A stretch of 64,000 nt of DNA from the NCBI GenBank assembly GCA_036557165.1, contig DATBIA010000095.1, positions 85,909 through 149,908 of the forward strand, in the 5' to 3' direction. Origin of the DNA: Bryobacteraceae bacterium (GTDB lineage: Bacteria > Acidobacteriota > Terriglobia > Bryobacterales > Bryobacteraceae). The position numbers were made by a program, and so were the translations under genes. Below the pieces are notes generated by a model, which made no database searches, was not told where the DNA came from, and worked only from the letters and a program-made list of their open reading frames with translations. Of this stretch, positions 29,513-43,914 are shown piece after piece; positions within the stretch are counted from its first letter, which is position 1, and every line of letters starts with the position of its first letter.

Positions 29513-30759
29513 TTGCGCGGGAGACAAGGGGCGCGTGCGTGGTCGCTCCCGTCGTCGCGAATGAGACGGCGCGACTACGCATCCTCAGTCTAAGCTGCGT
29601 CTATCCAAACCCGGACGATCCGCATCTGGGAAGTTTTGTGAGATCCCGGATCAAGCACGTCGGGAAATTGGCGGAGGTCAAGGTTCTCGCGCCTATCGCG
29701 CAGCTCGATTTCGCGCGTGGTGGGCGGGCGCGCTCCGGCAGGGGGATTCCCTCCCGCCTGTGGGACGAAGAGATCGAGGTCTTTCATCCTTCCTGGATCT
29801 ATCCGCCCGGGGGCAACGCGATCAACCCGGCGTTCCTTTTTCTGCGGCTGCTGCCCCTGGCGGCCCGCATTAGGAAAGACTTTGAATTCGATTTGATCGA
29901 CTCGCATTTCGCGTTCCCGGATGGCATCGCGGCGGCCTTGCTCGCCCGGAGGCTCGGTGTTCGTTTCTCGGTAACTCTGCGCGGTAGCGAGCTGCTGCAC
30001 GCGCAATATCCGCGGCGCAGGAAATTCATGGGATGGGCCCTCCGCCGCGCGAGCGCCGTGATCGCGCTTTCAGAGGAGTTGAAGGTGTTTGCAGTGTCGC
30101 TGGGCGCCGATGCAGCGCGGGTGAAAGTCATTCCGAACGGCATCGATCCCGCGATTTTTTATCCGCGCGACCGGGATCGCTGCCGCGCAAAGCACGGGAT
30201 TAACAGAGAAAGAAAAATCGTTCTTTCCGCGGGGTCGCTGATCGAGTTGAAGGGCCATCATCGGACGGTGAAAGCTGTTGCCGCTATTCGCGCGAAGGGG
30301 CTGGATGTCGAATTCTTGATTGCCGGAGGCGCGGGGCGCGCCGTGCAATACGAGCCGGAAATTCGCAAGCAGGTGGCCGATTCAGAGCTTCAGGACCGCG
30401 TCCGCCTTCTGGGAGAAATTCCGCCCGACGATCTGGCCGAGCTGATGTGCGCAGCGGATGTGTTCTGCCTCGCCAGCTCGCGGGAAGGATGGCCGAACGT
30501 AGTGCATGAAGCGCTGGCGTGCGGAACACCGGTGGTAGCGACGCGCGTGGGGGCAGTGGCGGAGATGATTCCTTCTTCGGACTACGGCTTTGTGGTCCCT
30601 CCAGGCGAAGTGGAAGCGCTTTCAAAAGCACTGCGTGAGGCGCTTGAAAAAGAGTGGGATGGCGCCGTGATCTCGCGGCTCGCGCAGGCGCGCACGTGGA
30701 CTCAGACGGCCAGTGAAGCGATCGATTTCCTGCGCCAACGGGCGGCGGTTGGGAAATGA
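29509..30759 (+). CDS. family 4 (GT-B) glycosyltransferase
   Basis: SREGWPNVVHEALACGTPVVATRVGAVAEMI is the E-x7-E region typical of GT4. Start and stop each overlap the neighbouring gene by 4 nt. Confidence 0.85.
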   Translation: MIARETRGACVVAPVVANETARLRILSLSCVYPNPDDPHLGSFVRSRIKHVGKLAEVKVLAPIAQLDFARGGRARSGRGIPSRLWDEEIEVFHPSWIYPPGGNAINPAFLFLRLLPLAARIRKDFEFDLIDSHFAFPDGIAAALLARRLGVRFSVTLRGSELLHAQYPRRRKFMGWALRRASAVIALSEELKVFAVSLGADAARVKVIPNGIDPAIFYPRDRDRCRAKHGINRERKIVLSAGSLIELKGHHRTVKAVAAIRAKGLDVEFLIAGGAGRAVQYEPEIRKQVADSELQDRVRLLGEIPPDDLAELMCAADVFCLASSREGWPNVVHEALACGTPVVATRVGAVAEMIPSSDYGFVVPPGEVEALSKALREALEKEWDGAVISRLAQARTWTQTASEAIDFLRQRAAVGK

Positions 30760-31721
30760 AAACGCTGATTACCGGTGGGGCGGGATTCATCGGATCGCAC
30801 CTGGCGGAGCGGCTGATTCGGGAAGGTTGCGAGGTCGCCATCGTGGACGAGCTTAACGATTTCTACTCGCCCAAATTGAAATGCGCGAATTTGGAGGCCG
30901 TTAAAGGGGCGGCGCGGGGACGCCTGGCGCCGTTCTTTCAGGCGGATATTTGCGACGAAGCCGCGATGGCGGATGTGTTCGACCGGGTGGAGCCGGAGAT
31001 GGTGATCCATTTGGCCGCGCGCGCCGGAGTCCGCCCGAGCTTGGAGCAGCCGCTGCTCTACGAGCGAGTCAACGTTCATGGAACGGCGGTGCTTCTGGAG
31101 GAATGCCGGAAAAAGGGCATTAAGCACTTTATATTCGCCTCGTCGAGCTCCGTTTACGGCGCCGCGAGCCGGGCGCCGTTCCGCGAGGACGATCCCGTCT
31201 GCCGGCCCATCTCGCCGTATGCCGCGACCAAGCTCGCCGGCGAAGCGATCTGCCATACCTATTCGCACCTGTACGGAATGCGCGTGGTCTGCCTTCGTTT
31301 TTTCACCGTCTACGGACCGAGGCAGCGGCCGGACCTGGCGATCCGGAAATTCACCGATCTGATCGAGCGGGGCGAACCGGTTCCGGTTTTCGGAGACGGC
31401 TCCAGCAGCCGCGACTACACATTCATCCAAGACATCGTAAATGGCGTCGTAGCCGCCACGCGCTACAATTGCGCGTACGAGATCTTCAATCTTGGAAATT
31501 CTCACCCCGAAAATCTGCTCGATTTGATCCGCGCTTTGGAAGAGGCGATCGGGAAACGGGCAGAGATCCGCTGGCTCCCGGATCAGCCCGGAGACGTACC
31601 AATCACTTATGCCGATATCGGCAAAGCGGCGCGGCTGCTCTCGTATTCACCGCAGACCCCGTTCCGCCAGGGGATTTGCGAATTCGTCGAGTGGCGCCGG
31701 GCGGTTAATGGCCTCGCCTAA
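30756..31721 (+). CDS. NAD-dependent nucleotide-sugar epimerase (SDR; UDP-glucuronate 4-epimerase-like)
   Basis: MKTLITGGAGFIGSHL Rossmann motif, SSSSVYG, catalytic YAATKLAGE. Confidence 0.8.
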   Translation: MKTLITGGAGFIGSHLAERLIREGCEVAIVDELNDFYSPKLKCANLEAVKGAARGRLAPFFQADICDEAAMADVFDRVEPEMVIHLAARAGVRPSLEQPLLYERVNVHGTAVLLEECRKKGIKHFIFASSSSVYGAASRAPFREDDPVCRPISPYAATKLAGEAICHTYSHLYGMRVVCLRFFTVYGPRQRPDLAIRKFTDLIERGEPVPVFGDGSSSRDYTFIQDIVNGVVAATRYNCAYEIFNLGNSHPENLLDLIRALEEAIGKRAEIRWLPDQPGDVPITYADIGKAARLLSYSPQTPFRQGICEFVEWRRAVNGLA

Positions 31722-32807
31722 AAGCGCGGCGTATTCGCGGACCATTCGTTCCTTCGAGTAGCGCTCCACCGCGCGCCCGCGATTGGCTGCGCCGATCCGA
31801 GCGCGGCGCTCGGGATTTTCAGCGACCTGCCGGAGCGCCTGCGCATAGCCCTCCTCGTCGTCCGGCGCGACGACACAACCCTCCGACGTTTCCCCCAGAA
31901 GCTCCCGGCTGTCGCCGACATCTGTGCAGACGACAGGCAGTCCCGACGCCATCGCTTCGAGCTGAGCGTTCGAGACTTGCTCGGTCGCCGAGGACATCGC
32001 GAAGACGTCCAGCATGGCGAGATAAGGCGCCGGGTCCAGCTGCCGCCCCGGAAAAATCACGCGTCCGGCCAGGCGAAGATCCGCAGCCAGTTTTTGCAAC
32101 TCGTCGCGGCACGGGCCTTCGCCGGCCAGGATCAAGCGGGCATCCGGCAAATTCGCCGCGTGGAACGCGCGGATCAGCAATCCCAAATTCTTCTCCGGGC
32201 GCAGGCCGCCGAGATAGCCGATTAAGATCGTTCCTTCGGGGATGTTTAACGTCTGGCGGCCGGCTGTATTGCGCCCGGGTTTGTAGCGAGCCACGTCCAC
32301 TCCCGTGGAGATCAGCCGGACTTTTTTCGATGACAGCTTGTACTGGTCGCGGGCGACCCGCAGCATAGTTCGCGAAGTCGCCACGGTTTGAAACACCGCG
32401 TTCAGAAGCGCTCTGCGGGCCCAGACGCGGCGGCGCAGCAAGCGCGTAGCTTCCTCTTGCGTGAAGCCGCACTCGTTGTGAATCACCGGGCAGATTCCCG
32501 CGAGCCGCGCCCCCAGCGTCGCCTCAATCGAGCCCCAGTTGTAAGTCAGAACCGCCGCGGGCCGGATCGACCTCACCAGATTGCGAAAGAAGAGCGCGCC
32601 CGATCCAGTCGGCGGAGGACCTTCCACGGTGGCATCGATGCACACCGAGAGCGAAGAGGCCGCTTCCAGGTTCTTATCGAGCGAGACGATCCGGTGAGCA
32701 AAGGAAGGCCCCAGCGAATTGAGGATCGAAACCATCCGCAGCTGAGTGCCGCCGGCGCCGAAGCCCGGAAATACGTGCAGCAGGCGCGGAGGGGGGGCCT
32801 CAGTCAT
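31647..32807 (-). CDS. GT4 glycosyltransferase, PEP-CTERM/EpsH1-system-associated type (stp2-like)
   Basis: Trimmed to the ATG at 32807 (MTEAPPPRLLHVFPGFGAGGTQLRMVSILNSL). C-terminal motif: SSATEQVSNAQLEAMASGLPVVCTDVGD. Confidence 0.8.
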   Translation of the reverse strand: MTEAPPPRLLHVFPGFGAGGTQLRMVSILNSLGPSFAHRIVSLDKNLEAASSLSVCIDATVEGPPPTGSGALFFRNLVRSIRPAAVLTYNWGSIEATLGARLAGICPVIHNECGFTQEEATRLLRRRVWARRALLNAVFQTVATSRTMLRVARDQYKLSSKKVRLISTGVDVARYKPGRNTAGRQTLNIPEGTILIGYLGGLRPEKNLGLLIRAFHAANLPDARLILAGEGPCRDELQKLAADLRLAGRVIFPGRQLDPAPYLAMLDVFAMSSATEQVSNAQLEAMASGLPVVCTDVGDSRELLGETSEGCVVAPDDEEGYAQALRQVAENPERRARIGAANRGRAVERYSKERMVREYAALLGEAINRPAPLDEFANPLAERGLR

Positions 32808-33975
32808 ATACCAGGACTTTCCCGGCTGGCTGAAGCATCTCCACAACTCTTTGCGCGTTCGATTCCCACAGCAGGCCGCGCTCGTAGATTGCGCGAAGCG
32901 CGTTCCTGCCGGTTCTCGACCGCAGATCCGAGTCGGTGGCAAGCGCGCTCAAGGCGCGCGCGAAGCTCTGCGTGTCGCCGGGGCGGAACAGGACCGCGCT
33001 ACGTCCGTTCTCCAACAACTCCTCGATGTTTTCCTGCCGCGGCGCCACGATCGCTTTGGCCAGCCCCATGTACTCCAAAATCTTCATCGGGCAGCAATAT
33101 TCGTTCGCCGCGGGCTGCACCGCGATGTCTACCAGGTCCAGATAGGCGGGGACTCGCTCGTGAGAAACCGGGCCCGTGAAGATGACGGAATCCTGAAGCT
33201 GATGAGCGGCCACGTAACGCTTCAACTCCTCCGTCGCGGGACCGTCGCCTACTAGCAACAGCACGGCCTGCCCGTTCCATAGCCCGGATTCGCGGAACGC
33301 TTCGAGCAGTAATTCGATGCCATGCCATGGCCGGAACCACCCGACGAAGCCGATGGCTACGCGGCCGCGGATGCCCAGCGATTCGACGAGCCGCGGGTCC
33401 CGGGCTGCGTTGAATCGCTGAAGATTGACCCCGTTCGGCATCAGCCGGAGCTTTGACTCCCGCACTCCGTTCTCGATCATGATGCGGCGCAGGGGCCCGG
33501 AGACCACAACCACTTTCGTCGCGCGATTGCAGACGACACGCTCGATCCAAGCCGCGAGCTTGTGAGCGCGGATTTCCTTTTCGCGGCTCATTTCGAGCGC
33601 TAACGGGGAGTTCACCTCTACGACAATCCTCTTGCCGCAGATCGCCGCCGCCACGACGCCGGAAAAATTCAACAGCGAATAGCGCTCGTAAATGAAGTCG
33701 GCGCGGCTGCGGCGGATTTTCAGGCACAGCCACGGAATCGCGAAGAGGTTATATCCGAGCTGCACCAGCTCGGACAAAAAAGGAATGGCCCGCAGCAACT
33801 TCTTCAAGCCCGATTCGCGGGCTTCGCGCTCCGGCTCGCTCGCGCGATTTTCGGTTTCGACCAACGAGGCCACTTCCACCTCGTGCCCGAGCTGCCTGAA
33901 TGCCGAGATCATTTCGAGAATGTGGACCTTCTGCGCGTCGGTCGCCCTGGTCCGGTGATGATAAAGGATCTTCAC
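32800..33975 (-). CDS. GT4 glycosyltransferase
   Basis: Trimmed to the GTG at 33975, which forms a GTGA overlap with the upstream stop (VKILYHHRTRATDAQKVHILEMISAF). C-terminal motif: CCPMKILEYMGLAKAIVAP. Confidence 0.8.
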   Translation of the reverse strand: MKILYHHRTRATDAQKVHILEMISAFRQLGHEVEVASLVETENRASEPEREARESGLKKLLRAIPFLSELVQLGYNLFAIPWLCLKIRRSRADFIYERYSLLNFSGVVAAAICGKRIVVEVNSPLALEMSREKEIRAHKLAAWIERVVCNRATKVVVVSGPLRRIMIENGVRESKLRLMPNGVNLQRFNAARDPRLVESLGIRGRVAIGFVGWFRPWHGIELLLEAFRESGLWNGQAVLLLVGDGPATEELKRYVAAHQLQDSVIFTGPVSHERVPAYLDLVDIAVQPAANEYCCPMKILEYMGLAKAIVAPRQENIEELLENGRSAVLFRPGDTQSFARALSALATDSDLRSRTGRNALRAIYERGLLWESNAQRVVEMLQPAGKVLVYD

Positions 33976-35156
33976 GAGATCATGGCTCCACGCTCTTCGC
34001 CTTCCATCGCTTCGAGCAACGGACGCAAGTTCGTTTCCCAAGAGAAGCTGGCCCGCGCGCGCTCGCGAATAAACGGCTCGCAACCTGGTTGGTCGTTCAT
34101 GCCCTCAAGCTGCCGCGCGTAGTCCTCGCTCGATTCGCACATCGACACGCCCTCGGGCAAGGTCTCTCCGAAACTGCTCGCCACACCGGGCGAAGCCAGG
34201 ATGCGCTTGCCCATCGCGAGGGCTTCCAGCACTTTGTTTTGTACTCCGCGCGCGATCCTCAGCGGAGCGACCATCGCAAGAGCGTGACTCAGGTACGGCC
34301 GCACGTCGGCCACGCCGCCCGTTACGGTGATTCCGGGCTTCGCCGCAAGGCGTTGGACAGCGCGCGCCGGATTACGGCCCACGATGAGGAACTCCAGGTT
34401 CGGCCACTGCGTGCGGAGTTGGACGAAAATCGCGTTCGCAAACCATCGGCAGGCGTCCACATTTGGAAAGTAATCCATTTGGCCCACGAACACCACGTAT
34501 CTCCGGTTTTCGAGGCCGGACGCAGCTGGGCAGACGGCTGGATTGAAGTATTCGAAATCGATCCCATTGATGTAGCTCTCGACGCCAGCGCCGGGCGCGA
34601 TTCGCTTCAGCAAATCCCTCTCGCGCGGGGTGGTCAGGAAGACGCATTCCGCCCGCCGGGCATAGGCGGCTTCCAACGCGCGGAGTCTGTTTCCCTCGAT
34701 TCTATACAGTGCCCCGGGCCAGCGCCGATCAGCATAGTCCAGCCATTTCTCGGAATCCACATCTACCATGTCGATCCAAAGCGGAACATCCGCCGGCGCA
34801 AACTGGACGACGGCGGAAGAATAGGCCAAAGTAGCATCAATCGGCAACCGCCGAAGCGATTCGATGTGCCTCCGCATCCTCTTGCTGCGATAGAAATCCG
34901 CGCTAATGGCTCCTCCAGCCGCGAAACGAAAGGCCGCTGAGGCAAGCGCGCGATAGGGCGGCAGGCGCTCGGCGAAAACCGAGGCACAGCGGTCTTTGAG
35001 TTCGTGCGCTCTCGCGACCTCTTCCGCGTTCTTTGCGAAGCACGCCAGATGGACGCGGTGCTTCGCCGCCAGCAGGTTCAGTTCGTGCCAGGCGCGAATC
35101 TTCTCGCCCTTATCGGGAGGATTGGGAACGCAGTGCGAGAGGAAGAGGATGTCCAT
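33972..35156 (-). CDS. GT4 glycosyltransferase, PEP-CTERM/EpsH1-system-associated type (stp1-like)
   Basis: MDILFLSHCVPNPPDKGEKIRAWHELNLLAAKHRVHL is the signature N-terminus of this family. Motif QNKVLEALAMGKRILAS is also present. Confidence 0.8.
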   Translation of the reverse strand: MDILFLSHCVPNPPDKGEKIRAWHELNLLAAKHRVHLACFAKNAEEVARAHELKDRCASVFAERLPPYRALASAAFRFAAGGAISADFYRSKRMRRHIESLRRLPIDATLAYSSAVVQFAPADVPLWIDMVDVDSEKWLDYADRRWPGALYRIEGNRLRALEAAYARRAECVFLTTPRERDLLKRIAPGAGVESYINGIDFEYFNPAVCPAASGLENRRYVVFVGQMDYFPNVDACRWFANAIFVQLRTQWPNLEFLIVGRNPARAVQRLAAKPGITVTGGVADVRPYLSHALAMVAPLRIARGVQNKVLEALAMGKRILASPGVASSFGETLPEGVSMCESSEDYARQLEGMNDQPGCEPFIRERARASFSWETNLRPLLEAMEGEERGAMIS

Positions 35157-35163
35157 CTGGATT

Positions 35164-35241
35164 TGGTAGGCGGAGCAGGGATTGAACGCTGCAGCCTCCT
35201 CTGTGTTTAATAGAGGCGCTCTACCATTGAGCTATCCGCCT
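35164..35241 (-). tRNA. tRNA-like gene, non-canonical, isotype undetermined
   Basis: The minus strand reads AGGCGGA-TA-GCTC-AATGGTA-GAGC-G-CCTCT-ATTAAACAC-AGAGG-AGGCT-GCAG(C)G-TTCAATC-CCTGC-TCCGCCT-A-CCA. It has a perfect 7-bp acceptor stem, a perfect D arm with GG, a TTCAA T loop and an encoded CCA. The anticodon loop is 9 nt, and an extra C bulges between T-stem positions 52 and 53. Confidence 0.6.
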
Positions 35242-35246
35242 ATTCC

Positions 35247-36302
35247 TCAGGGCACATGCCGGATCAACAATGGTCCCAGCGCCCTGGTCAGCCCCAGAGG
35301 CAGCCGCTGCCAGCACAAAATCGGCAACCGGAACGCCGGGTTCGCCGGGGAATAATTCGGCAAAGTTTTCCCTTTGACTAAGTGTACTTCGTAGGGCAAT
35401 TCGCGTTCCACCATGCCCCAGTGGGATTTGAAATCATAGGAGCCCTTCACTCGCTTGCTGCGGCCGAAATCGAAGACCCGATATCCGTTTTGACCGCCCC
35501 ACCGCATCTGGTCGTAATACATGAAGTTGTTCGGCTGAGCGGCATTGTAGGCAGGATCGGAAGCGCCATAGTACGGCACCACTTGATCGCGAAAATAGAA
35601 GCTGAACACCGCCGCCACTACTTTGCCGTTCAGGGTCACCTCGCGGATGTCCGACATCCCCTGGAATTTTTCCAGGAGTGTCGCGAAATGGCTCCTGGGA
35701 AAACAGGGCGTACCCAGCCGGCGAAGATTTCTCGAATATAGATCCTCGAAAGCGCGGCAATCGGAAAACTCGCGGCGCGAAACCATGCCTTCCTTGAGAG
35801 ACTTCCGAACCGCTGCACGAGTTTTGCGCGGAATCGAGTTCAGGATGGCTTCCTCGTCCGGGCCGATTTCCTGCGTGAAAGTCACGTAACGCGAGATGCG
35901 TGGCAGGCCGGAGCACTGCTGTTCCCAGGCGTTGCGCAGCTCCAGATCGCGGACCTCGAGATCCGAGGCCAGCTGCCTGGCGCGTTCCAGCAGAAGCATC
36001 CGCGCGTCGTCCGAATCGGCCAGAATCCCGCCATAGACGGCAAATGGAGAAGAGATCAGGCGCTTTCCAGTGACGAAGCCGCCCGTCAGAAACAGCGGCA
36101 AGACGGCGCTTATACGCTCCCCGCGCTTGGCTAGAAGATAAAACGGCCGATAGCCGAACGTCCGCTCGATGCTTTCTTTCCAGGCGATTAAGTGGAAGGG
36201 GCTTCCCTGCGGGTGGCCGAAGACGAACCTGTCCCACGCGGCATGATCGGCCGGTTCGAGCTTTCCGGCCGTGATTGCCTCGGTGGCCGTCTGGGCGGGC
36301 AT
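35247..36302 (-). CDS. FemAB-family protein, PEP-CTERM-system-associated type
   Basis: HPQGSPFHLIAWKESIERTFGYRPFYLLAKRGERISAVLPLFL, and the C-terminal region NFMYYDQMRWGGQNGYRVFDFGRS...SYDFKSHWG, typical of the FemAB/aminoacyl-transferase fold. Confidence 0.8.
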   Translation of the reverse strand: MPAQTATEAITAGKLEPADHAAWDRFVFGHPQGSPFHLIAWKESIERTFGYRPFYLLAKRGERISAVLPLFLTGGFVTGKRLISSPFAVYGGILADSDDARMLLLERARQLASDLEVRDLELRNAWEQQCSGLPRISRYVTFTQEIGPDEEAILNSIPRKTRAAVRKSLKEGMVSRREFSDCRAFEDLYSRNLRRLGTPCFPRSHFATLLEKFQGMSDIREVTLNGKVVAAVFSFYFRDQVVPYYGASDPAYNAAQPNNFMYYDQMRWGGQNGYRVFDFGRSKRVKGSYDFKSHWGMVERELPYEVHLVKGKTLPNYSPANPAFRLPILCWQRLPLGLTRALGPLLIRHVP

Positions 36303-37141: not shown

Positions 37142-38389
37142 ATGCAGCACGAGGTTGTCGAGGCCGAGGGCCACCTGATCGATTCCCATTTGATGGAGCA
37201 GATCTTCGACACCGTCGTTGAATACGACGGGCAATTCGAAGTTCAGGAGTTCCGGATCGGCCGGACCAATGCCGAGCCTTCGTATTTGCGGCTGCGAGTA
37301 CAAACGGAACAGCCGTCCGATATGGATCAGTTGCTTGGGCAACTGCTCGGGTTGGGTTGTACGCCAGTGGATACCGGCGACGCCGAACTCGCTGTAGTTG
37401 AGAGGGACTGCTGCGCGCCGGAGGATTTCTACTCGACCACCAACCACCGCACGATGGTGCGCTGCGAAGGCGAATGGTACGAAGTGCGGGACCAGCGCAT
37501 GGACGCGATGATCGTGATCTCGGAAGGCCGAGCCGCTTGCCGCCGCTTGCGCGACCTGCGAAAAGGCGATTGTGTGGTGGTGGGCATGCGAGGGATTCGC
37601 GTCATGCCGGAATCGAAAGAGCGCGACCGCCTCGCGTTCGCGTTCATGAGCAACACCATCTCGTCCGAGCGGCAATTGGAAACCGCTGTCCGTCAGACCG
37701 CTGCCTTGCTTGAACAGACGCGCGCGGAGGGAAAAAAAATCGTAGTAGTGGCCGGGCCCGTGGTGGTGCATACGGGAGGCGCTCCGGCGCTCGCGGAGTT
37801 GATTCGAGACGGCTGGGTGAGCGTGCTGCTCGCGGGCAACGCATTGGGGGTACATGACATCGAGGCGGCGCTGTTCGGCACGTCTCTCGGCATCCGCCAG
37901 AGCGACGGCCGGCAAGAAGAACACGGGCATCGCAACCACATGCGGGCGATCAACGCTATCTATCGGGCTGGGGGAATCGCTGAAGCTGTGGAATCGGGCC
38001 GGCTGACACGCGGAATCATGTACGAGTGCGCCATGGCGCGGGTTCCGTTCGTTCTCGCGGGAAGCCTACGCGACGACGGCCCATTGCCGGATACGATTAC
38101 CGATATGAATCGGGCCCAGGACGCCTATGCCGACCAGTTAAAGGGCGCCGGGCTCGTGTTGTGCCTGGGGTCGATGCTGCATTCGATCGCCGTTGGCAAC
38201 ATGTCGCCGAGCTGGGTGAAGATTGTGTGCGTCGACATCAATCCGGCCGTCGCGACGAAAGTAAGCGATCGCGGCACGGGGCAGGCGATCGGCGTCGTCA
38301 CCGACGTCGGACAATTTCTTGGATTATTGGCGGTTCAACTGCGGCGCGAGGGCGGTGAATCGCGGCGCGCGGAGACCTTGGGAAAGTGA
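37142..38389 (+). CDS. LOR/SDH-domain protein (TIGR00300-type; ornithine cyclodeaminase-like family)
   Basis: N-terminus EAEGHLIDSHLMEQIFDTVVEYDGQFEVQEFRIGRTNAEPSYLRLRV resembles the conserved start of this family. 415 aa. Motif: AGNALGVHD. Confidence 0.65.
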   Translation: MQHEVVEAEGHLIDSHLMEQIFDTVVEYDGQFEVQEFRIGRTNAEPSYLRLRVQTEQPSDMDQLLGQLLGLGCTPVDTGDAELAVVERDCCAPEDFYSTTNHRTMVRCEGEWYEVRDQRMDAMIVISEGRAACRRLRDLRKGDCVVVGMRGIRVMPESKERDRLAFAFMSNTISSERQLETAVRQTAALLEQTRAEGKKIVVVAGPVVVHTGGAPALAELIRDGWVSVLLAGNALGVHDIEAALFGTSLGIRQSDGRQEEHGHRNHMRAINAIYRAGGIAEAVESGRLTRGIMYECAMARVPFVLAGSLRDDGPLPDTITDMNRAQDAYADQLKGAGLVLCLGSMLHSIAVGNMSPSWVKIVCVDINPAVATKVSDRGTGQAIGVVTDVGQFLGLLAVQLRREGGESRRAETLGK

Positions 38390-41116: not shown

Positions 41117-41540
41117 GCATCCATTGCTAGGAGTCGGCGCGCTCATTTTCACGCGAGCCGGAAGGCGCGGCCCGATTCTTCTCATCGAGCGCGGGGGCAA
41201 GCCGCTGAAGGGCTATTGGTCGCTTCCGGGAGGCCTGGTCGAACCGGGCGAACAACTCGAAGAAGCGGTGCGCCGCGAAGTGGAGGAAGAAACCGGGCTG
41301 CGCATCGAGCCGACGCGTCTGTTCGAAATCTTCCAGCGCATCATGCGCGACTCCCAGGGCCGCGTGGAGTACCACTACGTGCTCGCCGATTACGTTTGCA
41401 GAGTGGTGGGAGGCAAATTGCGCGCGGGGGACGACGTGAGCCGGGCGGAATGGGCGCGGCGCTCGGAATTGCAGCACTATCGCCTGACCGAGGGAACGCT
41501 CGAAGTAATTGAGCGCGCTTTTTCGAGCGATGCACGTTAA
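41097..41540 (+). CDS. NUDIX hydrolase
   Basis: Nudix box GYWSLPGGLVEPGEQLEEAVRREVEEETGL. Confidence 0.85.
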   Translation: MRRRYPKHPLLGVGALIFTRAGRRGPILLIERGGKPLKGYWSLPGGLVEPGEQLEEAVRREVEEETGLRIEPTRLFEIFQRIMRDSQGRVEYHYVLADYVCRVVGGKLRAGDDVSRAEWARRSELQHYRLTEGTLEVIERAFSSDAR

Positions 41541-43914
41541 TCCCGTTCTTGAATTCGAGGAGCTTCGGGCGCTGCTCGGCCGGTACGTGCGCGGGCCGCT
41601 GGGGCGGGCCGAGCTGTCCCGCGTGGCGCCTTCTTCCGATCGAACGGAGATTGAAACCGCGCTGGCGGACGCGGCGGAAGCCATCGAATATCTAAGAACC
41701 TCTTCACAACCGCAGCCTTCAGCACGAGGAGCGGCGATCCGCCCGCGGTTTGATTTCGGAGCCGATCCGGGCCCTATCGTCGCACGGTTGCGTATCGAAG
41801 GAGCGACACTCGAGGCCACGGAGATTTTCGAACTGGCGCGGCTGCTGGACGCCGCCTCCGAAATTAGATCGCTGATTCTCGCGCCTGAAGCGAAGTTTCC
41901 ACGTCTGGCGGCCCATGCTTCCGGAATCGCCGATCTTCGCGACGTGGCGTCCGAGCTTCGCGGCAAGATCCTGCCCGACGGGTCGCTCGCGGACAGCGCG
42001 AGTCCGGCCCTGAACCGCATCCGCAAGGATTCAGAACGGCAGCGCCGCCTGATCGAGGAGTCGCTCCAACGTTTTTTACGAGCCCATCAAGAGGATGGGA
42101 CGCTGCAGGAAGATTTCGTCACGATCCGCAACGACCGTTTTGTGGTGCCCGTGGTCACCGGGCGCGAGCGTCGCGTGGAAGGCGTCATTCACGGCTCTAG
42201 TGGCAGCGGCCACACGGTTTTTGTCGAACCGCTCGAAACCATCGATCTCAACAACGAGCTGGTCCGACTCCATGAGGACGAGCTGCGTGAAATCCATCGT
42301 TTGCTGCGCGAGTTCACGGCGCGCCTTCGGGAGCATGCGGCGGCGATCGCGGCGTCCACGGAGGCGCTCGCGCGGCTGGAGTTGCTCTTCGCGAAAGCGG
42401 AATTCGCAGCGGATTTCGGCTGCGCGATTCCGCGATTAAGCCCGGAAGGACAACGGCGATTGGCGTTGCGCGAGGCACGGCATCCGCTACTCGAAAGCAT
42501 TTTCCGTCCGCAACGCAAAAGGGTCGTCCCTGTGTCGCTTTCCTTAGAAGCCAGCGACCGGACGCTGCTGATCAGCGGCCCGAATACCGGCGGCAAGACG
42601 GTGACCCTCAAGTCTGTCGGACTTCTCGCGCTGATGACTCATGCCGGCATCCCTGTTCCCGCCGCCGAAGCTGAGTTTCCGCTGTTCGATCGCGTGTTGG
42701 CGGACATAGGAGACCATCAATCGCTGCAAGAAAGTCTCAGCTCGTTTTCCGCGCATGTCCTCGCGATCCGATCGATGCTGGAGCAAGCGACGCCCGATTC
42801 GCTGGTCCTGCTCGACGAATTAGGTAGCTCCACCGATCCCGAAGAAGGTGGCGCGCTGGGCGTCGTCGTGCTGGAGGCATTTCGCAACTGTGGCGCCTTC
42901 GCGCTGGCGACGACTCATCTGACTCCGATGAAGGTCTACGGCGCGACGGCTGCCGGCGTTCGCAACGCGTCCATGGGATTCGATGAAGCCACGCTAGAGC
43001 CGACGTATGTCCTGCGCCTCGGATCGCCGGGCAAATCGGCGGGACTCGACATTGCGGCCCGGCTGGGCTTCGATCCCGAGATGATCGAGGCGGCCCGCGC
43101 CCGGATGAGCCACACGGAACGCGATGTTGCGCGGTTCCTGGCCGAGTTGGACCAACGCTTGCGCTCGATTCAGGAAGAGCGAGACCGCCTCGCCGCGCGC
43201 GAGCAATCACTGAACGCACGGGAAGCTTCGCTCGAGCAAACTTGGGAGCGGAAATATGCCGCGAAAATCCGCGAGATGGAGCAGCGCGCCGCGGAACTTG
43301 CCGGGGAATTTCAGAAGCGCGCCGAAGCTGTGATTGAAGAGTTGAGCCAAAAGGCCCCTCCCCGCAAGGCGCAGGTGAAGATTGCCAAGACTCAACGCGA
43401 ATATCGGGAGGCCGTGGAATCCCTTGCGCCGGAGGCTGGGGCGAAAATCGCCCCACGCCTGAAGCTCGGCGAGGGAGTGCGCGTACGGTTGAAGGGAGTT
43501 CGCCAGCCCGCCACCGTGCGCCGTCTGCTTTCGGGAGAGTTTTTGGAAGTCGAAGCGGGATACCTGAAGTTGCGGGTGCCATCTTCGGACGTCGAAGAGG
43601 TGTTGCCGCCCTCCGAAGCGCCCAAGCGTCCTTCCGGGATTGAATTCCATCAGGGCCCCAGTTTTGAAACTTCCTATCGCGAGATCAATCTCATCGGCCA
43701 GCGCGCCGAAGAGGCGTGCGGAAATGTCGAGAAGTTTCTCGATAGCGCGATCTTGGCGCAGATGGACATAGTCCGCATCGTACACGGGCACGGGATGGGG
43801 ATCTTGAAACGCGCCGTGGCCGAGCTTTTGAAAGATAATCCGCACGTCGCGAAATTCTATGCCGCTCCACCCGAGCAGGGCGGCTCCGGTGCTACGATCG
43901 TTGAATTAATTTAG
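41530..43914 (+). CDS. mutS2: endonuclease MutS2 (MutS domain V plus C-terminal Smr domain)
   Basis: Walker A LLISGPNTGGKTVTLK, LDELGSSTDPEEG, and Smr domain INLIGQRAEEA...VRIVHGHGMGILKRAV. The start is taken as the ATG at 41530; the track ORF opens at 41509. Confidence 0.9.
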   Translation: MHVNPVLEFEELRALLGRYVRGPLGRAELSRVAPSSDRTEIETALADAAEAIEYLRTSSQPQPSARGAAIRPRFDFGADPGPIVARLRIEGATLEATEIFELARLLDAASEIRSLILAPEAKFPRLAAHASGIADLRDVASELRGKILPDGSLADSASPALNRIRKDSERQRRLIEESLQRFLRAHQEDGTLQEDFVTIRNDRFVVPVVTGRERRVEGVIHGSSGSGHTVFVEPLETIDLNNELVRLHEDELREIHRLLREFTARLREHAAAIAASTEALARLELLFAKAEFAADFGCAIPRLSPEGQRRLALREARHPLLESIFRPQRKRVVPVSLSLEASDRTLLISGPNTGGKTVTLKSVGLLALMTHAGIPVPAAEAEFPLFDRVLADIGDHQSLQESLSSFSAHVLAIRSMLEQATPDSLVLLDELGSSTDPEEGGALGVVVLEAFRNCGAFALATTHLTPMKVYGATAAGVRNASMGFDEATLEPTYVLRLGSPGKSAGLDIAARLGFDPEMIEAARARMSHTERDVARFLAELDQRLRSIQEERDRLAAREQSLNAREASLEQTWERKYAAKIREMEQRAAELAGEFQKRAEAVIEELSQKAPPRKAQVKIAKTQREYREAVESLAPEAGAKIAPRLKLGEGVRVRLKGVRQPATVRRLLSGEFLEVEAGYLKLRVPSSDVEEVLPPSEAPKRPSGIEFHQGPSFETSYREINLIGQRAEEACGNVEKFLDSAILAQMDIVRIVHGHGMGILKRAVAELLKDNPHVAKFYAAPPEQGGSGATIVELI

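Follow-up and report, generated by a model that had tools for sequence, protein, structure and literature searches.

A conserved valine-type tRNA gene, probably non-decoding, adjoins the FemAB-family gene of XrtA/PEP-CTERM exopolysaccharide loci in Acidobacteriota

The window analyzed in this study, a 64-kb stretch (64,000 nucleotides) of contig DATBIA010000095.1 from the Bryobacteraceae assembly GCA_036557165.1, is a typical XrtA/PEP-CTERM exopolysaccharide locus, the right-hand edge of which is formed by a minus-strand operon that begins with a gene for a FemAB-family protein. A small tRNA-like gene lies 5 nt past the FemAB stop codon, and the ATG of the following glycosyltransferase gene, stp1, lies 7 nt past the CCA end of the tRNA-like gene (spacer 35157-35163), with no Shine-Dalgarno motif. 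All three genes are read from the same strand (Table 1). Both spacers had been given in a preliminary description of the window made from the sequence alone, and they were confirmed here. The FemAB-family and stp1-like neighbors named in that description were likewise borne out, with scores above the NCBIfam cut-offs of TIGR03019 (pepcterm_femAB) and TIGR03087, respectively.

The element was recognized as a tRNA by both ARAGORN and Rfam. ARAGORN made a single tRNA call in the window, at this position, and the Rfam tRNA model RF00005 gave 48.5 bits against a gathering threshold of 29 (E = 2.5e-7), while the family model R1 (see below) gave 101.4 bits at the same coordinates, its sole real match in the window. 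The acceptor stem comprises 7 bp (AGGCGGA/UCCGCCU), the D arm reads GCUC-AAUGGUA-GAGC, the variable loop has 5 nt (AGGCU), and the T arm reads GCAG-C-G / UUCAAUC / CCUGC; U8, A14, the GG of the D loop, and the GUUCAAU of the T arm are all present. In the alignment to RF00005, 4 nt stand at a place in the anticodon loop where the model has 2, and one C is inserted after the fourth pair of the T stem. The minimum free energy structure from RNAfold resembles a cloverleaf (-29.5 kcal/mol; z = -3.0 relative to shuffled sequences). By its Rfam score and by the nucleotides of its D and T loops, the element belongs to the tRNAs. The stems, discriminator A, encoded CCA, D arm, variable loop, and T loop of the preliminary description proved correct in every detail, and its two irregularities, an anticodon loop of 9 nt closed by CCTCT/AGAGG and an additional C in the T stem, were found again in the sequence and in the Rfam alignment.

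Apart from the tRNA, no other RNA family was reported by Rfam in the window. A weak match to R1 on the minus strand (29718-29808; 17.5 bits, E = 0.019) shares the acceptor-end strings GGGCGGAUAG...CCCGCCCACCA with the family, sits inside the open reading frame (ORF) of a GT4 glycosyltransferase, and is probably due to chance; it was treated as noise and not as a second copy.

Relatives of the element were collected in two ways. The FemAB protein of the window was searched against GTDB with one genome per species, and metagenomes were scanned with a degenerate pattern of the 5' half of the tRNA only, for which the counts refer to the matches listed and are lower bounds. All loci are from metagenome-assembled genomes (MAGs) or metagenome contigs. 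The protein scan of GTDB yielded ten loci, distributed over Bryobacterales, Solibacteraceae, Acidobacteriaceae, and one Desulfobacteraceae, and in eight of them the element is located directly downstream of the FemAB stop codon, with spacers of 9-65 nt. Five relatives from these loci had Rfam tRNA scores of 41-51 bits. The metagenome matches fell into two classes, namely the FemAB-linked element (at least about 65 loci) and ordinary tRNA-Ile(GAU). The latter class, which made up about half of the matches, is unrelated and was set aside; some 55 of its loci (within L016-L130; e.g., L021, L033, and L085) are soil contigs with long arrays of tRNAs for Ile, Phe, Lys, Asn, Glu, Ser, Gln, Met, and other amino acids, none with an encoded CCA. 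Model R1 gave 86-104 bits in more than 60 loci. The counts below refer to a family set of 59 distinct sequences, those of alignment A1 and three others, which come from MAGs of Acidobacteriota and from soil metagenomes.

Linkage to the FemAB gene was seen from both sides. At loci found through the RNA, a FemAB homologue (52-83% identity) was seen by tblastn to end a short distance upstream, on the same strand, in every case with sufficient flanking sequence, and stp1 begins just downstream of the tRNA in most of them. The upstream, same-strand FemAB stop codon was found in at least 50 loci, at a median distance of 24 nt (usually 5-75 nt). Among loci chosen by the protein alone (FemAB of about 60% identity), the element was present in all three further distinct loci of the acidobacterial type (L131, L136, and L137, with L138 as a duplicate record). 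Conservation at orthologous FemAB-stp1 junctions is thus supported by eight of ten GTDB loci and three of three protein-chosen loci, and at least about 65 loci reached through the RNA alone proved to be FemAB/PEP-CTERM loci. It is not a chance resemblance, because the same element occurs at the same junction in dozens of independent loci. Nearly all family members are located in XrtA/PEP-CTERM exopolysaccharide loci, with one copy per locus; the exceptions are L060, which has two copies in tandem about 160 nt apart, and L014, in which a second copy has decayed. These results suggest that XrtA/PEP-CTERM exopolysaccharide loci of Acidobacteriota (Bryobacterales, Solibacteraceae, and Acidobacteriaceae) contain the tRNA as a conserved part.

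A phage or mobile origin was also considered and was rejected, as a scan of viral contigs with a pattern of the 3' half gave only ordinary tRNA-Met/Ile-type genes and phage tRNA arrays and no family member. A viral contig from IMG/VR (L150, 3835-6281) holds an array of 13 or more tRNA genes. A gene in this array has the acceptor stem (AGGCGG.../...CCGCCUACCA) in common with the family, but its 7-nt loop (CUUAUAA) is ordinary, and it does not belong to the family.

Across the 59 sequences, identity of the tRNA to the window copy was 81-99% (median 88%), whereas that of the neighboring FemAB protein was 52-83% (median 61%), and the spacers around the tRNA vary between loci in both length and sequence. 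In the alignment, 98% of the stem cells are paired, the discriminator A is present in every sequence, and the CCA is encoded in 58 of the 59. Compensatory substitutions were found, and they are few: an AU-to-GC switch occurs at pair 7:66 in eight sequences and at 51:63 in two. The tertiary pairs 15:48 (A:U in 46, U:A in 2, G:C in 1, C:A in 6, A:C in 3, and A:A in 1) and 26:44 (G:A in 46 and A:G in 6) also covary, as the L-shaped tRNA fold predicts. Taken together, the element is a tRNA-shaped gene under strong purifying selection. Copies of a different kind were seen in three loci: the second copy in L014 (1592-1656) has decayed to 31.5 bits and has the look of lost constraint, a copy in L019 has a degenerate 3' end without CCA, and one in L027 is truncated in the anticodon loop.

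Along with this conservation, the features of a decoder are systematically lost across the family. The anticodon loop has 7 nt in 18 sequences, 8 nt in 19, 9 nt in 21, and 10 nt in one, and an expanded loop of 8-10 nt is therefore retained in 41 of the 59 relatives. The loop sequence 5' of the conserved triplet varies freely, which puts all of the extra nucleotides in the 5' part of the loop. At the equivalent of U33, 13 sequences have U and 43 have A, the window copy being among the latter. An extra nucleotide interrupts the 5' strand of the T stem in 53 of the 59 sequences, and a regular T stem was found in two only. A canonical loop, of 7 nt with U33, is combined with a CAC, UAC, or AAC anticodon in seven copies, all of which carry the extra T-stem nucleotide, so that no sequence in the set is canonical in both the loop and the T stem; ordinary decoders, the presence of which among the relatives would have spoken against the preliminary description, did not appear. 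The window copy itself has neither the loop of a canonical elongator tRNA (7 nt, with U33 and a purine at position 37) nor an uninterrupted 5-bp T stem. The T stem is the helix gripped by EF-Tu. The insertion in this stem and the aberrant anticodon loop suggest that EF-Tu and the ribosome would use the tRNA poorly.

Despite the variable loop length, an A-C doublet at positions 35-36, two nucleotides before the 3' strand of the anticodon stem, is present in 59 of 59 sequences, and the triplet at 34-36 is always NAC (CAC in 22, AAC in 19, UAC in 14, and GAC in 4). In the window loop, AUUAAACAC, this doublet falls at 35206-35205 when counted from the 3' strand of the stem. ARAGORN labeled every member with a 7-nt loop as Val, and its labels across all copies were Phe, Leu, Ser, Tyr, Val, or undetermined. 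The label tRNA-Phe(aaa) for the window copy was rejected on comparison with the family, in which the conserved triplet is NAC, and it is an artefact because ARAGORN centers the anticodon in the 9-nt loop. Among the tRNAs collected, the closest were tRNA-Val(UAC/CAC) and tRNA-Ile(GAU); the latter had been recruited by the search pattern itself, leaving tRNA-Val as the sole unbiased match. The tRNA-Val genes have in common with the family the acceptor, the D arm, the CCUCU/AGAGG anticodon stem, and the AGGC of the variable loop.

The valine identity set consists of A35, C36, A73, and the minor elements G20 and G45 together with a regular acceptor helix (Giege and Eriani 2023, PMC9976931). In the family, all seven pairs of the acceptor helix are Watson-Crick pairs, G3-C70 is invariant, and G45 is present in at least 90% of the members. 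C36 excludes an isoleucine identity, which needs U36, and a methionine identity (CAU). As judged from the sequence, both the tRNA body and the anticodon are of the valine type.

The enzyme encoded next to the tRNA was compared with proteins of known structure. Searches of the PDB with the sequence and with a profile of 26 sequences found only FemX of S. aureus and Sbb17/Sba18, which are aminoacyl-tRNA-dependent peptide synthases, with FemX (6snr) at 1.5e-16 in the profile search. An AlphaFold (AF2) model of the window FemAB protein had a pLDDT of 93.7, and the top 11 Foldseek matches of the model were FemX (S. aureus and Weissella), Sbb17/Sba18, and FemA, with TM values of 0.62-0.69, followed by the aminoacyl-tRNA-dependent domains of MprF/aaPGS. 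The predicted fold is of the aminoacyl-tRNA-dependent, tandem GNAT-like type.

We propose, with moderate confidence, that the gene encodes a functional, non-decoding tRNA that is derived from tRNA-Val, accepts valine, and is dedicated to the FemAB enzyme. A dedicated aminoacyl carrier for FemAB had been the hypothesis of the preliminary description, and the comparative checks listed there spoke for it to the extent that computation allows. The linkage and the fold indicate that the tRNA probably supplies the FemAB transferase with its amino acid. The tRNA would be co-transcribed with FemAB in most genomes, or transcribed from its own strand in a few, and then excised by tRNA-processing enzymes. 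Charging would be carried out by the housekeeping valyl-tRNA synthetase (ValRS), as the retention of A35, C36, A73, G45, the acceptor helix, and the CCA suggests. The anatomy of the RNA, with an anticodon loop that has 8-10 nt and/or lacks U33 and with an extra nucleotide in the T stem, would exclude the charged molecule from translation, and the adjacent tandem-GNAT FemAB enzyme would take it as the aminoacyl donor. More speculatively, and by analogy with VimA and Orf11 (see below), the amino acid is probably passed to an amino sugar from exopolysaccharide synthesis, which might in this way obtain a free alpha-amine able to receive PEP-CTERM proteins from the exosortase.

This last step can be extended to protein anchoring: TIGR03019 would attach valine to an exopolysaccharide amino sugar after its deacetylation, the alpha-amine of this valine would be the long-sought nucleophile with which XrtA attaches PEP-CTERM proteins, and the tRNA would in addition punctuate the transcript and give a near-leaderless stp1 mRNA. 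Such a linking sugar would be the exosortase counterpart of the Ser/Gly linking sugar of type IX secretion (T9SS). We regard this extended scheme as rather doubtful.

Several observations weigh against a dedicated valine donor. No tRNA was found within 3-5 kb of FemAB in four Desulfobacterota loci (L010, L132, L134, and L135), and one Bryobacteraceae locus (L008) has FemAB without a nearby tRNA; the existence of such homologues implies that the TIGR03019 enzyme family needs no dedicated tRNA. No exosortase, EpsI, or TIGR03006-type/VimE-like deacetylase was detected by tblastn in the 64-kb window. There is little covariation, as the RNA is highly conserved and the metagenome search pattern fixed most of its 5' half; the loci reached through the protein alone all match this pattern too. 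As to the amino acid, the assignment to valine is based on identity rules of E. coli and other model organisms and on a loop numbering that starts from the 3' side. Of the valine set, G20 is not kept (position 20 is U or C), pair 4:69 is C-G in place of the U-A of E. coli, and ValRS may not accept an anticodon loop of 8-10 nt.

Another role for the tRNA would be that of processing punctuation, in which RNase P and 3' processing cut the FemAB-stp1 transcript, stp1 receives a leader of 5-7 nt, and charging is irrelevant. In favor of such a role, the tRNA abuts both ORFs in the window, in 43 loci the stp1 start follows the CCA after 5-28 nt (median 7 nt) and lacks a Shine-Dalgarno motif, and a promoter scan around the tRNA junction revealed no sigma-70-like promoter; terminator-like sites around the junction were no more frequent than in shuffled sequences. 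The processing role cannot be the sole function, because several loci have the gene on the opposite strand. The tRNA is convergent with FemAB in L029, divergent from FemAB or from a deacetylase-FemAB-stp1 operon in L088, L102, and L112, and on the opposite strand between epsI and stp1 in L037 and L119; all six are nevertheless PEP-CTERM loci. In other loci the tRNA has different neighbors, being followed by an exosortase gene in L137 and by another, stp2-like glycosyltransferase gene in L074, and in L125 it comes after stp1; L074 and L125 are likewise PEP-CTERM loci. Moreover, a cleavage signal would not require an invariant A35-C36, A73, CCA, and a valine-type anticodon. Punctuation without charging is thus an unlikely account of the gene. 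The processing signal offered as an alternative in the preliminary description fails as the only function, and it stands as a possible secondary one next to the supply of valine to FemAB.

Excision of the tRNA would leave the stp1 mRNA almost leaderless, similar to tRNA punctuation in mitochondria. In addition, the stp1 start is unusual in a number of loci. In L005, L006/L069, L040, L049, L080, L092, and L106, the stretch from the tRNA to the conserved ILFLSH at the N-terminus of stp1 has no ATG, GTG, or TTG, and for L005, L006/L069, and L080 the closest start in frame is a GTG in the T arm of the tRNA, 26 nt before the tRNA end. The same in-frame T-arm GTG is accompanied by a start codon downstream of the tRNA in L024 and L082. 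In such loci, the stp1 ORF may extend into the tRNA gene or may begin at a non-canonical start codon.

We consider it very improbable that the RNA is a regulator, i.e., a tRNA mimic whose charging state or binding by ValRS or FemAB tunes exopolysaccharide production, or a quadruplet or frameshift-suppressing decoder. Identity elements kept without decoding features would suit a sensor of valine charging, and 8-nt anticodon loops are known in frameshift suppressors. However, Rfam found no T-box or other partner element in the window, and the linkage is specifically to an enzyme whose relatives consume aminoacyl-tRNA; for the frameshift decoder, a fixed expanded codon cannot be reconciled with a loop length that shifts between 7 and 10 nt in closely related copies. 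Least probable, by a little, is an ordinary or decaying tRNA-Val gene, either decoder or pseudogene, that is present in the operon by chance: the seven copies with a canonical loop agree with it, as does the encoded CCA, which is normal in this lineage (genuine tRNA-Thr and tRNA-Gly genes in L106 encode it), but the lack of any copy canonical in both loop and T stem, the clustering of changes on the 5' side of the loop with fixed stems, D and T loops, A73, and CCA while FemAB diverges to 52% identity, the different appearance of true decay (the second copy in L014, L019, and L027), and a tight linkage to one gene family over at least about 65 loci, which is not expected of a housekeeping tRNA, speak against it, and the decaying tRNA that the preliminary description had listed is rejected on this pattern of conservation.

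Beyond the FemAB operon, further markers of the locus in the window include a PrsT-like tetratricopeptide repeat protein, a chain-length determinant, an ATPase, a tyrosine kinase, and PEP_O_lig_1. The AsnB-like amidotransferase (Table 1) scored below the TIGR03108 cut-off of 817 bits. On its other side, the FemAB operon borders unrelated genes for an ornithine cyclodeaminase (37142-38389) and MutS2 (41509-43914).

Table 1. Features of the tRNA gene and of its neighborhood in the 64-kb window
Feature	Position	Strand	Basis
tRNA-Val-like gene, probably non-decoding, 78 nt	35164..35241	(-)	ARAGORN, Rfam, family model R1
Discriminator A73 (35167) and encoded CCA (35164-35166)	35164..35167	(-)	Sequence reading
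Anticodon loop AUUAAACAC, 9 nt	35203..35211	(-)	Closed by stem CCUCU/AGAGG
5' strand of T stem, GCAGCG, with extra unpaired C at 35188	35187..35192	(-)	Rfam alignment insertion
FemAB-family XrtA/PEP-CTERM protein, TIGR03019 (pepcterm_femAB)	35247..36302	(-)	NCBIfam, 349 bits against cut-off of 260
stp1 GT4 glycosyltransferase, TIGR03087	33972..35156	(-)	NCBIfam, 367 bits against 317
stp3-like GT4 glycosyltransferase	32800-34083	(-)	NCBIfam and Pfam
stp2-like GT4 glycosyltransferase	31647-32942	(-)	NCBIfam and Pfam
AsnB-like amidotransferase, XrtA/PEP-CTERM type, TIGR03108	8103..10028	(+)	NCBIfam, 689 bits, top match

The Desulfobacterota loci show a related gene arrangement. In Desulfobacula phenolica (L132) and Desulfoluna spongiiphila (L134), EpsI is followed in turn by the exosortase, the deacetylase, FemAB, and stp1. 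The last three of these genes overlap stop-to-start in L132, where WbpA/B/D/E/I-like genes are present; L134 has a gap of about 310 nt between FemAB and stp1, and only WbpA- and WbpI-like genes in the fetched stretch. This gene set parallels the Wbp/Vim linking-sugar pathway. Mobile or toxin-related genes were also found in these loci: a nucleotidyltransferase/HepT-like (HEPN) toxin-antitoxin pair lies between the deacetylase and FemAB genes of L135 (4133-4970), and an insertion sequence element with an rve transposase splits the AsnB-like amidotransferase gene of L134 (9190-10355).

To our knowledge, neither a chemical role for the PEP-CTERM-associated TIGR03019 FemAB protein nor a molecule that receives the substrates of the exosortase has been established in the years after 2006, when the system was defined. 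A valine-type tRNA gene adjoining the FemAB gene leads to a testable prediction, in which the donor is Val-tRNA and the reaction class is tRNA-dependent aminoacylation. If the proposal is true, this would be, as far as we know, the first non-proteinogenic tRNA outside Gram-positive cell-wall synthesis, the first with its exclusion from translation written in the anticodon loop, and the first encoded beside the gene of its transferase. It would also represent a new way of removing a tRNA from translation. For genome annotation, the inconsistent ARAGORN labels among copies mean that pipelines will mislabel the FemAB-linked tRNA. In the literature searched, we found no paper that joins PEP-CTERM or exosortase, FemAB, and a tRNA, and no description of such a tRNA.

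The nearest precedent is found in staphylococci, whose non-proteogenic tRNA-Gly species are donors for FmhB, FemA, and FemB; FmhB prefers them, and EF-Tu binds them poorly (Rietmeyer et al. 2021, PMC7826273). Both systems have an extra tRNA lineage, keep the identity for their aminoacyl-tRNA synthetase, and have a user, here a proposed one, from the FemABX family outside translation; in staphylococci, peculiarities of the D or T arm are tied to poor use by EF-Tu and the ribosome, and arm peculiarities are present here too. The acidobacterial tRNA differs in being valine-like and not glycine-like, in an anticodon loop that is itself expanded or without U33, and in a T stem with an inserted nucleotide in place of altered base pairs. 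It also belongs to a Gram-negative soil phylum and to an exopolysaccharide/exosortase context, in contrast to peptidoglycan. Furthermore, the acidobacterial tRNA gene adjoins the gene of its proposed transferase, and we know of no such adjacency for the staphylococcal tRNA-Gly genes.

Acidobacteria also have allo-tRNAs and other irregular tRNAs, some of which are thought to be non-decoding (Mukai et al. 2017, as reviewed in PMC7609411). These come from the same phylum and are likewise non-canonical, with an 8/4 or 9/3 acceptor/T architecture (12-bp branch) and serine-type features, whereas the FemAB-linked tRNA has a 7-bp acceptor, a 5-nt variable loop, a valine-type anticodon, and linkage to one enzyme. 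An allo-tRNA identity is ruled out by the 7-bp acceptor, the 5-bp T stem with its bulge, and the 5-nt variable loop. The valine-type tRNA-like structure (TLS-Val) of turnip yellow mosaic virus (TYMV) is a non-decoding RNA whose pseudo-anticodon loop retains A35, C36, and C38 and which ValRS can charge with valine (PMC9976931), and valylation thus tolerates contexts other than a tRNA. The viral structure is a pseudoknotted 3' untranslated region, unlike the free-standing cloverleaf gene of a bacterial operon described here.

On the side of the enzyme, Orf11, the founding Sba18-type member, glycylates an amino sugar from Gly-tRNA (PMC12945691). Orf11, Sba18, and Sbb17 of streptothricin-type antibiotic synthesis (PDB 9wqw-9wqy) combine a FemX-like fold, an aminoacyl-tRNA donor, and N-acylation of an amino sugar, and in both sequence and fold they are some of the closest matches to the window FemAB protein. 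They differ in belonging to Streptomyces secondary metabolism and in using ordinary Gly-tRNA with no linked tRNA gene.

For TIGR03019, the literature searched held a single study (Veith et al. 2020, PMC7468200). In that study, VimA of Porphyromonas matches TIGR03019 and adds Ser or Gly to N-2 of a diamino-uronic sugar of the Wbp pathway after deacetylation by VimE, and the amine of the added amino acid then takes the C-terminus of the T9SS cargo (PMC7468200). For the TIGR03019 proteins encoded in PEP-CTERM loci, the authors offer the speculation that these produce a comparable sugar, modified with an amino acid, for use by the exosortase, and they name neither a tRNA nor an amino-acid donor for VimA (PMC7468200). 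The partners of VimA in P. gingivalis and Tannerella forsythia, the VimE deacetylase and the AsnB-like WbpS, parallel TIGR03006 and TIGR03108, and the GT4 protein VimF, needed for anionic lipopolysaccharide (A-LPS), parallels stp1 of the PEP-CTERM loci. The Vim system differs in its use of Ser or Gly and in T9SS/PorU sorting, with no dedicated tRNA reported, as opposed to a valine-type tRNA and an exosortase here. By this analogy, a dedicated valine-type tRNA beside the acidobacterial FemAB gene fits the Vim model and would supply its missing donor.

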